64,000 nt of DNA from positions 1-64,000 of IMG/VR virus record IMGVR_UViG_3300012979_000039; one strand, 5' to 3'. Origin of the DNA: a virus (Duplodnaviria; Caudoviricetes). The notes beneath the pieces were generated by a model that saw only the letters and a program-made list of their open reading frames with translations, did no database searches and had not been told where the DNA came from. Position numbers and translations under genes: made by a program. Below, one piece after another: positions 45,868 to 61,848 of the stretch. Each line of letters opens with the position of its first letter. Positions within the stretch are counted from its first letter, which is position 1.

Positions 45868-47109
45868 ATGAACACAGTATTATTGAACACGGTGCATCTT
45901 GACGGTGCACCTATCGTAAAGAAAGTCTCTGGTGAGGGTGGTGGTAGTACCATCCTCAATCAGAGCAAGAGTGTAGAGATTACCGAGAACGGGAGTGTAT
46001 CGGTGACTCCAGATGCCGGATATACTGGCTTGAGCAAGGTGGATGTCAATGTAGATGTCCCCACTCAAGAAATTAGCAACCAAGACAAGGCAATAGACAT
46101 CGTTGAGAACGGCACTACTGAGATTGTAGCGGATGCAGGTTACACAGGTCTTGGGAAGGTATCCGTTAATGTCAATGTCGCTTCAAGCGGTGGTGGAAGT
46201 GGATGGACAGGTCACGCAGATGCGGAAGGCTTGAAGGCCATCGGTTGGACTGACGAGGATATTGCTTACTACCAAGAGCATGGTGTGAATTGGAATGCAG
46301 AGGATGACGAGTATCACAAAGTAACTGATGACAACAAGGCTTTGTATGGGGTGTTGACTGCGGATAATATACAAACCTACAAGGATAGGATTGTGTATCT
46401 TCCAAAGATTGATACGAGTGGTGTGACGAATACAACCAGCATGTTCTACAACTGCTATTCCCTTGTAAGTATTCCACAGTTGGATACAAGCAATGTGACG
46501 AATACAACCAGCATGTTCAACAACTGCTATTCCCTTGTAAGTATTCCACAGTTGGATACAAGCAATGTGACGAATACGAACAACATGTTCAACAACTGCT
46601 ATTCCCTTGTAAGTATTCCACAGTTGGATACAAGCAATGTGCGGGATATGCACCACATGTTCAACAACTGCTATTCCCTTGTAAGTATTCCACAGTTGGA
46701 TACAAGCAATGTGACGAATACGAACAACATGTTCTACAACTGCTATTCTCTCACATCAATTCTACAGTTGGATACAAGTAGAGTGACTTCTGCGGGTTAT
46801 ATGTTCTACAACTGCAACTCTCTCACATCAATTCTACAGTTGGATACAAGTAGAGTGACGAGTATGTATGGTATGTTCTATGGCTGCTTCTCTCTCACAC
46901 ATGCCAACCTTAAAGGTGTAGCAAAAGCATATCAGTTGAATAACTCCGCTCTTTTGAGCAAGGAATCCCTCCTCTATCTTATTGACAACGAGGCGGCAAC
47001 ATCGGCTATCACTATCAAACTCGCAGCCTACGCATACGAAAGACTTGCAGAGGATGCTGATGTAGTAGCGGCACTCGCTAATCATCCTAACATTTCAATA
47101 GCACAGTAA
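45868..47109 (+). CDS. receptor-binding/adhesin protein with DUF285/BspA-like repeats
   Basis: Seven 24-aa repeats (SIPQLDTSNVTNxxxMFxNCYSL); two N-terminal DAGYTGL.KV.VNV repeats. Confidence 0.8.
   Translation: MNTVLLNTVHLDGAPIVKKVSGEGGGSTILNQSKSVEITENGSVSVTPDAGYTGLSKVDVNVDVPTQEISNQDKAIDIVENGTTEIVADAGYTGLGKVSVNVNVASSGGGSGWTGHADAEGLKAIGWTDEDIAYYQEHGVNWNAEDDEYHKVTDDNKALYGVLTADNIQTYKDRIVYLPKIDTSGVTNTTSMFYNCYSLVSIPQLDTSNVTNTTSMFNNCYSLVSIPQLDTSNVTNTNNMFNNCYSLVSIPQLDTSNVRDMHHMFNNCYSLVSIPQLDTSNVTNTNNMFYNCYSLTSILQLDTSRVTSAGYMFYNCNSLTSILQLDTSRVTSMYGMFYGCFSLTHANLKGVAKAYQLNNSALLSKESLLYLIDNEAATSAITIKLAAYAYERLAEDADVVAALANHPNISIAQ
46400..46900 (+). repeat. 72-bp tandem coding repeats
   Basis: Near-identical TATTCCCTTGTAAGTATTCCACAGTTGGATACAAGCAATGTG cores at 72-bp period. 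Confidence 0.9.
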
Positions 47110-54770: not shown

Positions 54771-54805
54771 GCAAAGGTAAACTTTTTAGTTTACAAGTCA
54801 AAGAT

Positions 54806-56041
54806 TTACTTGCTTTTTCGGTAATCCTTGCCGTAAAATATATAGTCTATTATCTTTCTGTTTGCGTCATCTACAAGGTCGTTGTCGTAATCTATATATA
54901 TATCAGTTACTTTCAATCCGAAACTGTGCCCCATGCCTCTGCTTATCACCTCTTTGGATATGCCTATCTTCATTGCTACGGTAGCCCAAGTGTGGCGTGC
55001 CCAGTTTGAACTCAAGTCCGGGAAGATGCCTTTCCCAAGAATCTTGCCGCGTTTGCCGAGCGGTCTGCCGATAGCCTTGAGCCCGTCATTGAAATGATGT
55101 AGATAGTCCTTATAGTCGTCATACGAGTCCATAGGGTTGAGCAAGGTACCTCTGCCTTTGTACTTTTCAATGATCGCGATTGCCTCTGGCTCCAGTTTGA
55201 CAGACAGAGGTGTTCCCGTCTTGTTTCTTCGGTAATCTAACCTGCCGTTGGACACCTGCTGTGCAGTAGCAAGGAAAAGGTCTCCGGCATTGATTCCGCG
55301 AAGAAGGAACATGAGGATAAACATATCGCGATACTGCTCTTGATAAGGCTCGCACTTGGCATTTAAGAGGCTTTTGAGTTGTTCCGGCATAAGTGCCTTC
55401 TTCCGCGTATTCTCTTGTCTTAACGGGTACTTTCTGAAAGGATACAAGGTTGTTATGCCCGCGTTGATTGCATCGTTGAATACGGCTCTTATGTTTCTCA
55501 GGTGGATATTCCTGCTGTTCTTCTTCTCTGTCTTGGAACAAAAGGACTCGAACTCCCGAAGATAGTCGTTGGTTATATCCTCAAACGAGCGGGTTGCAAG
55601 ATTAGAGTCATATGCTTCTAACTTTCGGAGAGTATAGGCATACAGCCCTCTTGTCCCGTCATTGCCCTTCAGTTCCATGAAGCGAACAAAACGGAATCGG
55701 AACATATGGCTTTCCTCTATTTTCCGCTTCTTGTCAGGGTCTATGATGTCAATTATCTTGTCACGAAGTTGATATGCAGTTAATCCTCCGCTTTCCCCGT
55801 TTTCCACCAGCCGCAGGATAGCGGAATCTATCTCCAATCTCTTCTTGTTAAGGATAAGATTGATTCTTTTGGCATTCGGATGATTTACCACCTCCTTTCT
55901 TGTCGTACTCCACTGTTGCACTGTTACCTTGATACCTGTATTGATATAAGCCGCCTTGCCGTTCTTCCGTATAGCAAATTTCAGAGGAACCGGTTGATTT
56001 TCCTGAACCGCTCTGGCGTCGAAGTAGATTGTTATTGTCAT
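54806..56041 (-). CDS. int: tyrosine integrase
   Basis: Arm-binding N-terminus (Y.NTGI.V...QW); LRNIRAVFN.A; RGIN..D; YRRNKT; ARHTWAT...MGH...T..Y. Confidence 0.95.
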   Translation of the reverse strand: MTITIYFDARAVQENQPVPLKFAIRKNGKAAYINTGIKVTVQQWSTTRKEVVNHPNAKRINLILNKKRLEIDSAILRLVENGESGGLTAYQLRDKIIDIIDPDKKRKIEESHMFRFRFVRFMELKGNDGTRGLYAYTLRKLEAYDSNLATRSFEDITNDYLREFESFCSKTEKKNSRNIHLRNIRAVFNDAINAGITTLYPFRKYPLRQENTRKKALMPEQLKSLLNAKCEPYQEQYRDMFILMFLLRGINAGDLFLATAQQVSNGRLDYRRNKTGTPLSVKLEPEAIAIIEKYKGRGTLLNPMDSYDDYKDYLHHFNDGLKAIGRPLGKRGKILGKGIFPDLSSNWARHTWATVAMKIGISKEVISRGMGHSFGLKVTDIYIDYDNDLVDDANRKIIDYIFYGKDYRKSK

Positions 56042-56191
56042 ATCCCGCACTGATTTTGCACTTTCTTCTCCCTTAAAATGGAAAAAAATGGAAAGAAATG
56101 CTCTTTTTTTTGACCGGGATAGTCTTGAAATGAGGGGAAAAATAAAGCGATTGACCGTTATAACTAACTGATAATCAATCGCTTTATAGGT

Positions 56192-56236
56192 GTGATTCGG
56201 TTGGGATTCGAACCCAAGACCCACAGCTTAGAAGGT
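56192..56236 (-). other. attP core = 3' half of tRNA-Arg(TCT)
   Basis: Minus strand CCTTCTAAGCTGTGGGTCTTGGGTTCGAATCCCAACCGAATCAC with no 5' half; directly upstream of the integrase. Confidence 0.85.
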
Positions 56237-58665: not shown

Positions 58666-59634
58666 ATGGCTAATTTCACAATCAGAGCCAATAATCACAA
58701 AGAGTGGTTGGAGGCAAGGAAAGGAGGTATCGGTGCATCAGAGATAGGCACCATCCTCGGTGTCAATCCATACGACACTCCTTATCAGTTGTGGCTCCGC
58801 AAGACAGGCAGAGTACAGGAAGTAGAGAGCGAGAACTTCCTAATGAAAGCGGGACACTATCTTGAAGATGCAATCTCAAAGTTCTGTGCCGATGAAACCG
58901 GCATCGAGATCATCAAGCGTTCCGCAGAGGAGTTCGTCGTAGTCAATCAAGATAAGCAGTTCCTCCGTGTTAGTCCCGACCGATATGCTTGGCTGCCTAA
59001 TGCGAAGCACACACAAGATAACAAGGTTGTCGTTGAATGCAAGTCAACACAGAAGCAGATATTCGATGATGATATTCCTCTCACTTGGTTCACGCAGGTG
59101 ATATATCAACTTGGCGTGTGCGAAATGAATCAGGCATATCTTGCTTGGCTGACACAAGGCAGGGACTTCGGATATAAGCATATCGTTTTTGACAAGGACT
59201 TCTACAATGATGTAATCGTTGCGGAAATCGAAAAGTTCTGGGTTGATAACATCCTCGGAGACCAGGAGCCTGCTCTTTTGAACATCGAAGATGTGAAGAG
59301 AAAGTATCCGATTCACAATGTCGGAAAGTCAGTCGAAGCGACAGATGAACTCCTTGACAGGTATCACACTCTTGTCGATGTGAATGCAAAGATAAAGGAA
59401 CTTTCGGCTATCAAAACAGAGGCCGAGAATGCCCTCAAATTTGCCCTTCAAGACGCGGAAAGTCTAATTATACCAGCGACAAACGAAATGCCGTTCAAGA
59501 CCCTTGCTACTTGGAAAGCAGCCAAGGAATCAAGCAAGTTCGACGAGAAGGCATTTGCAGCGGAGAATCCAGAACTGTATTCAAGATATATGGTCACTAC
59601 TCCGGGCAGTCGCAGATTCATGCTTAAACAGTAA
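58666..59634 (+). CDS. YqaJ-like viral recombinase exonuclease
   Basis: WL..RK.GIGASE...ILG.NPY.TPYQLW..KTG; SPDR; VECKS; Q.IYQLGV. Confidence 0.9.
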   Translation: MANFTIRANNHKEWLEARKGGIGASEIGTILGVNPYDTPYQLWLRKTGRVQEVESENFLMKAGHYLEDAISKFCADETGIEIIKRSAEEFVVVNQDKQFLRVSPDRYAWLPNAKHTQDNKVVVECKSTQKQIFDDDIPLTWFTQVIYQLGVCEMNQAYLAWLTQGRDFGYKHIVFDKDFYNDVIVAEIEKFWVDNILGDQEPALLNIEDVKRKYPIHNVGKSVEATDELLDRYHTLVDVNAKIKELSAIKTEAENALKFALQDAESLIIPATNEMPFKTLATWKAAKESSKFDEKAFAAENPELYSRYMVTTPGSRRFMLKQ

Positions 59635-60248: not shown

Positions 60249-60350
60249 ATCGGGTAGGCTGTACTACCTTAATACGAGGGAATTTTCCACTCGGAAAGAC
60301 TGTCTAACTAGTTGCTATACAGCTACAGCACGCCCCACATCGTTTTATCC
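60249..60350 (+). ncRNA. natural single-guide-like RNA upstream of dead Cas12f
   Basis: Homologous to the tracr at 61520-61575 with compensatory stem changes; loop GCTGTA complementary to TACAGC (60324-60329), followed by a putative guide. Confidence 0.6.
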
Positions 60351-60359
60351 TAAATCGCT

Positions 60360-61511
60360 ATGGTTATCACAAGAAGAATTGAAGTCTTTATCTGCGAGGA
60401 TGATAAAGACCTCCGTAAGTCGTATTACGAAAAACTCTACGACAACAGTAAGGCGGCAGTCGCTACCGCTAATATGGCTATCTCGCATTTGTATATGCTT
60501 GACAATACAACCCCTTATCTCTCGGAAGAAGATAGAGAGAAGATAGTCTATCTCGGAGCAAAGGGAAGTGCTGCAACAAGAAACAATGCACCCTATGTCA
60601 AGGCTTCCGAGATGTTCAAAGGAAAGGCGGATATGGGTATGCTTTCCTGCGTATGTCAGGAAGTACGAAAGGTCTATCAGGACGACCGAAAGAAAGGAAT
60701 GTGGAATAGGTCACTCCGTTCATATAAGGCGAATATGCCAATGCCGTTTAAGGCGGAAAGATTCTGTGATCTTCGCATTTCCGAATATCACGATAAGGAA
60801 GATACTGTCCGCAAAGGGTGCCTCTTCACTCTTATGGGTATCCCTTTCCAATGTAGATTCGGCAGGGATAGGAGTAACAACAGAGTGATTGTGGAAAGAG
60901 TCATAGAGGGAGATTACAAGATGTGTACATCTTCCATTCAGATTGATGGGAAGAAGATATATCTGCTTTTGCGTGTCGATATTCCTGTTCAGGAACATAA
61001 ACTGACAGAGGGTAAACAGATATTCGCCTTCCTTGGAGTAATGAATCCTATTGTATGCACTACGGATATAAATTATAATCTCTGTGGCGAGAGCAAGACC
61101 AAGAGTGTTGTTTGGGAGATAGGAACAAAGGAAGAGTTCAACTATCGCAGAAGGCAGATTCAGGAAGCGGTTTGGAGATGTCAGAAGCAGAACAAATATA
61201 GCACGGGAGGTAAGGGCAGAAAGAGGAAGTGTCAGGCAATAGAACGATACCACGAAAAGGAAATGAACTATGTAGACACGAAACTCCATACTTATTCCCG
61301 TGAACTGGTGGATTTAGCCATCAAGCACAAGTGTAGTGAGATAGTTCTCATGTCGCAGAAGAAGAGGGAAGAGAAAGCCAAGAAGGACAACGCAGTTGAA
61401 GAGAAGAACAATCATGAAGAGTTCGTCCTTCGCAACTGGTCTTACTATGGCTTGAAGGAGAAGATTTCCTACAAGTGTAAGATGGCCGGGATTAAGTTGA
61501 TAGAAGAATAA
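60360..61511 (+). CDS. cas12f: nuclease-dead Cas12f-like protein
   Basis: G.GRKRK; H.YSR.LVD.A.K..C..I; LRNWSYY.L..KI.YK...AGI align to Cas12f; RuvC-I Asp and RuvC-II Glu replaced (AFLGV, IVLMSQ); ends before the Zn finger and RuvC-III. Confidence 0.85.
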   Translation: MVITRRIEVFICEDDKDLRKSYYEKLYDNSKAAVATANMAISHLYMLDNTTPYLSEEDREKIVYLGAKGSAATRNNAPYVKASEMFKGKADMGMLSCVCQEVRKVYQDDRKKGMWNRSLRSYKANMPMPFKAERFCDLRISEYHDKEDTVRKGCLFTLMGIPFQCRFGRDRSNNRVIVERVIEGDYKMCTSSIQIDGKKIYLLLRVDIPVQEHKLTEGKQIFAFLGVMNPIVCTTDINYNLCGESKTKSVVWEIGTKEEFNYRRRQIQEAVWRCQKQNKYSTGGKGRKRKCQAIERYHEKEMNYVDTKLHTYSRELVDLAIKHKCSEIVLMSQKKREEKAKKDNAVEEKNNHEEFVLRNWSYYGLKEKISYKCKMAGIKLIEE

Positions 61512-61519
61512 AGACAATA

Positions 61520-61605
61520 TATCGGGGTGGTTGCACACCCTTAACGGGAGGATTTCTCACTCCTGAAATACCTTTACGAAAGTGGTTTGTAGGTAGTTAT
61601 GTCGG
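61520..61605 (+). ncRNA. tracrRNA candidate
   Basis: GGGTG-GTTGCA-CACCC hairpin whose loop complements the repeat end TGCAAC; AATACCTT complements AAGGTAT in the repeat. Confidence 0.7.
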
Positions 61606-61609
61606 ATAG

Positions 61610-61775
61610 GTTGTAAATACCTATAAAACTTAAGGTATATGCAACTCCTCTGTGTTTATGGAAAATTCAATCTGTTGTAAATACCTATAAAAACTCAAGG
61701 TATATGCAACATCGGAGAAAACTTGCCCTCATAAAGACGGTTGTAAACACCTATAAAATTCAAGGTATATGCAAC
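61610..61775 (+). CRISPR. mini CRISPR array: 3 repeats (36-37 bp), 2 spacers (28, 29 bp)
   Basis: GTTGTAAATACCTATAAAACTTAAGGTATATGCAAC at 61610-61645, 61674-61710, 61740-61775; GTTG...ATGCAAC ends as in type V-F; partial ATATGCAAC at 61793-61801. Confidence 0.92.
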
Positions 61776-61848
61776 AACAGCCACAAACTACAATATGCAA
61801 CGAGGACAATTTTATCTTATCTAAACAAATTGTTTAATAAATAGGCAA

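Follow-up and report, generated by a model that had tools for sequence, protein, structure and literature searches.

Nuclease-dead Cas12f proteins (dCas12f) have only recently been shown by experiment to work with natural single guide RNAs, and the origin of such guides from a tracrRNA and a half repeat is a prediction based on phylogeny. The guide RNAs of sigma-E-associated dCas12f are single chimeric molecules of 85-105 nt carrying a 14-16-nt guide at the 3' end (Hoffmann et al., Nature 2026, PMC13472631), and the structure of the Fta dCas12f guide RNA contains four paired regions and a 14-nt guide (10.1101/2025.06.10.658880). The same study (PMC13472631) already describes single guides for dCas12f, loci that mix full guides with arrays, and an rpoE-less cluster linked to arrays. 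This CRISPR-associated cluster is described there from bioinformatics (Extended Data Fig. 1a,b), with a Chitinophagaceae chromosome as the example and an efflux promoter as its target. Regarding the evolution of these systems, Altae-Tran et al., PNAS 2023 (PMC10691335) put forward a scenario in which Cas12f is dead, the array is minimised, and a half repeat and the tracrRNA fuse to give an omega-RNA-like guide. Two further systems are related in function, namely, I) the long-form tracrRNA of Cas9, which is a natural single guide (Workman et al., Cell 2021, as cited in PMC13472631); and II) the Cas12m roadblock systems found on plasmids and prophages (PMC11656645).

The DNA analysed in this study is a 64-kb stretch (64,000 nt, here referred to as the window), which forms the first part of a 73-kb IMG/VR virus record and contains a dcas12f gene (Table 1). 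The best solved relative of the encoded protein is 9n9c, 'Nuclease-deactivated Cas12f' (E 3e-54, end-to-end alignment), while the Pfam family OrfB_IS605 is matched with 11.7 bits only. The RuvC-I Asp of active Cas12f aligns to a Phe in the phage protein, the chain stops short of the zinc finger and RuvC-III, and the intact RuvC triad and zinc-finger/RuvC-III part of type V-F Cas12f are thus absent. About 830 homologues are present in public data; those derived from genomes belong to Prevotella or Prevotellaceae, and viral contigs give 29 further loci. No Sigma70_r4_2 match is present in the 73-kb phage record, and no sigma-E gene was found near dcas12f in five related records. Hence, dCas12f systems without sigma-E are a common cargo of Prevotella phages. 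Two other features of the window were recorded. A perfect match to the promoter consensus of Bacteroidetes (TTTG, 19 nt, TAnnTTTG), one of only three in the whole window, lies on the minus strand at 54772-54802, just past the integrase gene, and 72-nt tandem repeats, which surfaced during the screen for repeat ends, are found within a coding region at 46437-46725.

Table 1. Features of the phage dcas12f locus, with positions in the window.
Feature	Position	Strand	Basis or remark
Integrase gene	54806-56224	minus	
RecE/YqaJ-like exonuclease gene	58666-59634		
Upstream guide-RNA scaffold core	60251-60314	+	model R1, 58.8 bits, E 1e-18; fold; covariation
Upstream stem 1	60253-60257 with 60264-60268	+	sequence, fold
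Upstream pseudoknot loop GCTGTA	60258-60263	+	sequence
Upstream stem 2	60275-60281 with 60286-60293	+	sequence, fold; one bulged A
Anti-repeat remnant CTGT	60300-60303	+	follows GAAAG, which follows stem 2
Tandem TACAGC-TACAGC	60318-60323 and 60324-60329	+	deletion scar joining scaffold and guide
Predicted 18-nt guide	60330-60347	+	invariant in the window, L001, L037, L107 and L106
Variable leader, guide to dcas12f start codon	60348-60359	+	five-region alignment
dcas12f	60360-61511	+	383 aa; nuclease-dead, C-terminally truncated
Downstream tracr-like scaffold	61523-61609	+	model R1, 66 bits, E 4e-21 (match 61523-61584)
Downstream stem 1	61525-61529 with 61536-61540	+	sequence
Downstream loop GTTGCA	61530-61535	+	partner TGCAAC ends each repeat
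Downstream anti-repeat ATACCT	61568-61573	+	after stem 2, before linker
Mini-array	61610-61801	+	repeat finder and sequence
Repeats	61610-61645, 61674-61710, 61740-61775	+	every one ends in TGCAAC
Spacers	61646-61673, 61711-61739	+	
Short guide	61776-61794	+	
7-nt repeat stub	61795-61801	+	terminal guide from 61802

A preliminary description of this DNA had recognised, upstream of dcas12f, a second scaffold that parallels the tracr downstream of the gene, and the stems, six-base loops, loop partners and GAAA that it listed are all present at the positions given, in both copies. An alignment of the two regions extends for about 60 nt, a resemblance that lies far outside what chance would produce, and between their loop/partner pairs two base pairs are changed, both with full compensation. 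For the covariance model from homologous loci that had been called for, 32 scaffold copies were taken from distant loci, none of them from this phage clade. When run over both strands of the whole window, this model (R1) gave two matches and nothing else, one to each scaffold (61523-61584, and the upstream core with E 1e-18). As these are the only matches in the window, the upstream element is a genuine second scaffold copy and a paralogue (60251-60329) of the downstream one. Rfam holds no family that matches either scaffold.

The upstream element lies on the dcas12f strand, and its parts can be assigned to a single short RNA. Its second TACAGC is the in-cis partner of the stem-1 loop GCTGTA, with 6 of 6 Watson-Crick pairs; the preliminary description had located this partner correctly but had overlooked the other, tandem copy directly before it. 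In this first TACAGC, ACAG (60319-60322) is able to pair with the CTGT that follows stem 2, which leaves an anti-repeat helix of 4 bp, compared to 5-8 bp (median 6.5) in the family. Thermodynamic folding of the element recovers stems 1 and 2; in the minimum-free-energy fold the second TACAGC is placed in a hairpin and the pseudoknot is not used. The predicted RNA has a 79-nt scaffold and an 18-nt conserved guide, together about 97 nt (60251-60347), with both ends predicted from the sequence, and would consist of the two stems, a short counterpart of the anti-repeat helix, and a 6-bp pseudoknot at the guide. With a probability of roughly 0.55, this stretch is considered to be a natural single-guide RNA gene for the nuclease-dead Cas12f, which would direct binding to an external site and probably repression. 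Loaded with the fixed 18-nt guide, dCas12f would bind DNA sequence-specifically without cutting it, and the bound protein would most likely block transcription in a CRISPRi-like manner; the sequence bound would belong to the host or to a rival mobile element and not to the phage itself. CRISPRi-like repression is favoured because no sigma-E partner is present in the phage.

The predicted RNA resembles the single guides described by Hoffmann et al. (PMC13472631) in several ways: their protein (9n9c) is the nearest relative with a solved structure, the RNA is one molecule, the scaffold is 5' and a short, fixed and conserved guide is 3', the predicted length of about 97 nt falls in the range of 85-105 nt, and four paired elements are present. 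With stems 1 and 2, the anti-repeat helix and the pseudoknot, the number of paired regions equals that of the solved Fta dCas12f guide RNA (10.1101/2025.06.10.658880). The differences are that the RNA gene lies upstream of dcas12f, where theirs lies immediately downstream, and that neither an rpoE nor an hth partner is present in the phage, so that sigma-E activation is unlikely. Moreover, the described systems yielded no tracrRNA-like species, while the phage keeps an unfused, tracr-like scaffold with a mini-array in addition to the upstream element; the context is a phage, and the searches gave no target for the guide. Similarities to the long-form tracrRNA and to Cas12m are that a dead effector, or a fixed guide of natural origin, serves to repress transcription and not to cleave, and that mobile elements are carriers; the proteins and RNAs are unrelated, however, and no match to a self-promoter was found in the phage.

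The downstream module has a separate tracr-like scaffold and a CRISPR array; behind the upstream element there is no array. Its scaffold would serve the three-repeat mini-array, and when it is folded together with the first repeat, the anti-repeat ATACCT pairs with AGGTAT of the repeat (z -3.9). This arrangement is like the type V-F Cas12f1 dual guide in that the 3' part of the repeat is paired to a tracr-like RNA, a pseudoknot is adjacent to the guide, and each repeat is followed by its spacer. It departs from type V-F Cas12f1 in its dead, truncated nuclease, in a scaffold far shorter than the Cas12f1 RNA of about 200 nt, and in the absence of adaptation genes. A 10-nt perfect complementarity between the upstream stem-2 loop region (60280-60289) and the first spacer (61659-61668) was also observed, the number of such pairs in the 2.2-kb region being that expected by chance.

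Both modules of the window belong to a family with clear pairing rules. In nearly all related loci, two to five scaffold-plus-mini-array modules are found on the dcas12f strand, on both sides of the gene. Each module is built, in this order, from stem 1 with its six-base loop, stem 2, an A-rich junction, an anti-repeat of 5-8 nt, a linker, and one to nine 36-nt repeats. In the 32 distant scaffold copies, stems 1 and 2 are 98.3% paired, compared to 40-51% when the 3' partners are slid, and double changes are seen in 11 of the 13 stem pairs. The pairing codes were compared over about 35 modules in about 35 Prevotella phage or prophage loci. To form the pseudoknot, the stem-1 loop pairs with the six bases that end the repeat, directly 5' of the guide, and five matched loop/repeat-end states occur (GCTGTA/TACAGC, GCTGCA/TGCAGC, GTTGTA/TACAAC, GTTGCA/TGCAAC and GCTGTG/CACAGC) in addition to a few G-U variants. 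Among close relatives, the orthologous downstream modules show three matched states, grouped as the window with L037 and L107, L106, and L001 with L036. With repeat ends located independently of the loop, the match exceeds permuted assignments (p = 0.0007); weight is placed on this test and on direct reading, since the other pseudoknot permutation is biased by the choice of repeat end. The pairing of the loop with TACAGC, on which the preliminary description had staked its claim, is thus conserved and covarying in homologues. In a second helix, which covaries as well, the anti-repeat pairs with the part of the repeat that directly precedes the pseudoknot partner, e.g., ATACCT:AGGTAT in the window versus ATAGGT:ACCTAT in L015. 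Cognate anti-repeats pair at 6.3 positions on average and non-cognate ones at 4.8 (none of 10,000 permutations reaches the observed value), and this helix is recovered by thermodynamic folds of scaffold plus first repeat.

Two further observations concern the placement of scaffolds and repeats in related genomes. In Prevotella sp. P2-180 (G004 contig C48), more scaffold copies are present at 90650-90709, 110484-110745 and 111772-112153, i.e., 2-25 kb from its dcas12f gene and in addition to the three copies in locus L006. The last repeat of a module is often close to the gene that follows, ending at its start codon or at most about 25 nt away: the ATG of dcas12f directly follows the last repeat in L031 (2980-3003), and start codons of other genes are near terminal repeats at L005:5560-5580, L009:4390-4420 and L006:4470-4502. 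In such cases, the last 'guide' would therefore be the leader or the first codons of the gene itself.

The rpoE-less cluster is similar to the phage loci in having dead Cas12f beside arrays, a covarying putative scaffold upstream of the arrays, and a proposed role in repression (PMC13472631). In the text considered here, the account of that cluster says nothing of carriage by phages, of multiple modules per locus with differing codes, or of modules collapsed to a single guide.

Aligning the upstream regions of the window and of L001, L037, L107 and L106, of which the dCas12f proteins are 85-95% identical, reveals how the fused form arose. The upstream region of L106 contains the scaffold, the linker and two full repeats (three repeat ends), and those of L037 and L107 contain one full repeat (two repeat ends). 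The window and L001 lack 47 nt, from the TACAGC of the linker to the TACAGC that ends the last repeat; in L037, L107 and L106, at least 47 nt separate the two motifs. The intergenic lengths fit such a collapse series, with 120 nt in the window and in L001, 167 nt in L037 and L107, and 225 nt in L106; two further relatives have 229 nt. As read from this series, an ordinary module of scaffold and repeat gave rise to the fused form by losing 47 nt between two TACAGC motifs, and the scaffold was thereby joined directly to the last guide of the module. L037, L107 and L106 retain the ordinary module. In these three uncollapsed forms, the full repeat supplies GAGAGT as the pairing partner of the anti-repeat ACTCTC, and position 60302 is C; in the collapsed window and L001 only, it is G. 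The G creates the CTGT:ACAG pairing with the first TACAGC, whereby the second TACAGC is freed for the pseudoknot at the usual one-base spacing. The change at 60302 looks like a likely compensation, and together with the 47-nt deletion it is probably one event shared by both phages, not a pair of independent replicates.

This series follows the path of Altae-Tran et al. (PMC10691335), with three repeat ends in L106, two in L037 and L107, and one, fused, in the window and L001, and what used to end the repeat now forms the 3' end of the fused scaffold, as in that scenario. Beyond the scenario, fused and unfused states flank one and the same gene, in phages without RpoE, and the junction can be read directly.

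Since the collapsed form is the product of a deletion, the element might also be a decaying relic: the repeat was lost, the module is unused, and both the scaffold similarity and the conserved guide reflect recent ancestry only. In addition to the deletion itself, this explanation draws on the stem-3 substitute of only 4 bp, on the absence of a target in the searches, and on an estimate that 18 invariant columns would be seen with a likelihood of roughly 0.08 at the scaffold's rate of about 13% variable columns. However, both stems are intact, as is the pseudoknot partner, the R1 score is near that of the downstream copy, and the only stem-1 change among the five upstream copies (in L107) keeps the pairing as G-U. 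The collapsed form also persists in two phages with dCas12f proteins that differ by 15%, and compact modules of a like design arose independently in L003, L009 and L033. Decay is hence regarded as quite unlikely.

The single-guide reading relies further on the conservation of the guide. All 18 of its positions are invariant in the five phages, divergence sets in directly 3' of 60347, and of the 12 leader columns that follow, about half are variable in the five-region alignment. Both in place and in size, this block is as expected of a guide. The guide of 20 nt (60330-60349) that had been assumed earlier is accordingly shortened to this conserved stretch. An invariant 18-nt guide beside a diverging leader suggests a fixed target. 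Of the earlier proposal of a cis-fused guide with a fixed target, the fusion is borne out, and the first 18 nt are invariant in five phages, but a target was not found; since none was found anywhere searched, the fixed target is still inferred.

The start codon of dcas12f follows 12 nt after the guide, whose conservation could therefore serve an mRNA leader instead. In such a cis-acting, autoregulatory arrangement, the scaffold and 'guide' would be the 5' UTR of dcas12f, and dCas12f, bound to it in the manner of a guide RNA, would hide the start region and limit its own translation. The position of the element directly before dcas12f on the same strand is in line with this, as are the promoter and terminator scans (including the Bacteroidetes TTTG...TAnnTTTG consensus), which detected nothing separate at the upstream element, the terminal repeats that abut start codons in relatives (of dcas12f in L031 and of other genes in L005, L006 and L009), and the DNA target searches, which found no target. 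On the other hand, the bases nearest to the start codon are variable and the conserved block coincides with the guide position, conserved terminal guides also occur in downstream modules that do not precede dcas12f, and the known dCas12f guide RNAs act on DNA (PMC13472631). Autoregulation through the leader is therefore judged unlikely, and a natural single guide remains the preferred reading.

Candidate targets of this single guide were sought in the phage itself, in other phages and in host genomes. As had been noted before, the window contains no target, and none is present elsewhere in the 73-kb phage record down to the seed level: 14-mers with up to 2 mismatches and 16-mers with up to 3 mismatches matched the locus itself only, and with seeds of 9-12 nt in two registers no seed of at least 9 nt was found elsewhere in the record. 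An exact 18-mer search of IMG/VR returned only the copy of L001. Blastn of the guide against the INPHARED phages gave weak chance matches only, and the 60 exact 17-mer matches in JGI metagenomes were rejected; none of them extended or stood beside a repeat end, and they fell on unrelated, mostly GC-rich contigs. The search of Bacteroidales genomes and phages for targets with a shared flanking PAM, which had been suggested earlier, thus yielded no target. In five host genomes with related prophages, the guide had no match with up to 3 mismatches. Among 401 Prevotellaceae genomes, 4 matches of the 20-mer (up to 2 mismatches) compare to 5 for the reversed control, and among 121 further genomes, 3 matches of the 19-mer (up to 1 mismatch) compare to none for the control. 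Overall, no guide match above chance was obtained in about 520 Bacteroidales genomes, and a match in the genome of the true host may exist nonetheless. The near-matches with 1-2 mismatches (L039:1500-1520 on the minus strand, L042:1502-1521, and L114 and L115 near 1501) fall in the coding motif Asp-Lys-(Thr/Lys)-(Met/Ile)-Trp-Gly of unrelated genes. In two genomes the product is a Wzx-like polysaccharide flippase (Pfam Polysacc_synt_3), and in two more the gene is an unrelated one. With counts close to those of the control, these sites are considered a lead and not a target.

Guides of the downstream modules were treated likewise. The last two downstream guides of the window (61776-61821) are kept in L037 (1981-2030) and L106 (1786-1850), i.e., across phages with different pseudoknot codes, the second guide being located behind a repeat stub of 7-9 nt. 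On account of these conserved terminal guides, the clade seems to carry a few fixed guides alongside variable spacers. Spacers 1 and 2 of the window have no exact 20-mer match in IMG/VR, and the mini-array region has no match in INPHARED. Six matches of the downstream terminal guide, allowing two wildcards, share no common flank and were judged to be due to chance; when the spacers of Prevotella sp. P2-180 were compared to the genome that carries them, other modules and A-rich chance matches were the only hits. The sole candidate protospacer was found for a downstream-array spacer of L010 (L010:3000-3023), which matches L011:4049-4072 with 1 mismatch in 20, at a site about 2 kb downstream of dcas12f with a 5' flank ending in TTTTG. 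This match hints at targeting between phages and at an adjacent motif of the G or TTG type.

The two modules of the window differ in both helices, and on cross-pairing the pseudoknot would have one mismatch and one wobble, while the anti-repeats would match poorly. As the downstream scaffold has its own matched anti-repeat and pseudoknot codes, one protein would be fed by two RNA sets which, in this phage, are unlikely to cross-pair. The pair had been described as orthogonal; while the codes do differ in the window, the difference is not conserved. Nor is the pair a purpose-built one, loci with several modules and differing codes being the norm in the family; differing codes within one locus recur in L003, L009 and L031. 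In L001, the closest complete relative, the upstream and downstream modules are both GCTGTA/TACAGC, and the separation by pseudoknot is therefore not a conserved feature of the module pair. The code difference may be drift with compensation rather than design.

Another explanation is that the upstream scaffold is a second, trans-acting tracrRNA, which makes no guide of the sequence behind it and pairs with crRNAs from a TACAGC-ending array elsewhere, e.g., in a co-resident related phage. Of all repeat ends in the family, TACAGC is the most frequent by a wide margin, and the scaffold copies located kilobases from dcas12f in Prevotella sp. P2-180 would fit such a role. Near the upstream scaffold, however, TACAGC is present only as its own tandem pair with no array behind it, and the collapsed anti-repeat fits its own partner in cis and not the usual repeat tails of the family. 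A trans-acting tracrRNA is consequently deemed very unlikely.

New in this locus, relative to the systems described above, are the phage setting, the organisation in multiple modules with module-specific pairing codes, and a readable series from dual to single guide. The close relatives keep the three-, two- and one-repeat states, which allows the fusion junction to be read base by base. If the codes do prevent cross-pairing, one very small DNA-binding protein would come with a natural set of orthogonal guide scaffolds, ready for use. What the locus means for biology hinges on what the conserved 18-nt guide binds. A broader and doubtful possibility is that the dCas12f of Prevotella phages is a multi-channel regulator, in which each module would have a two-helix address of its own (pseudoknot and anti-repeat), several RNA sets would load one protein with no cross-pairing, a few fixed guides, the fused one at 60330-60347 among them, would silence conserved genes of the host or of rival phages, and variable spacers would be directed against competitors.
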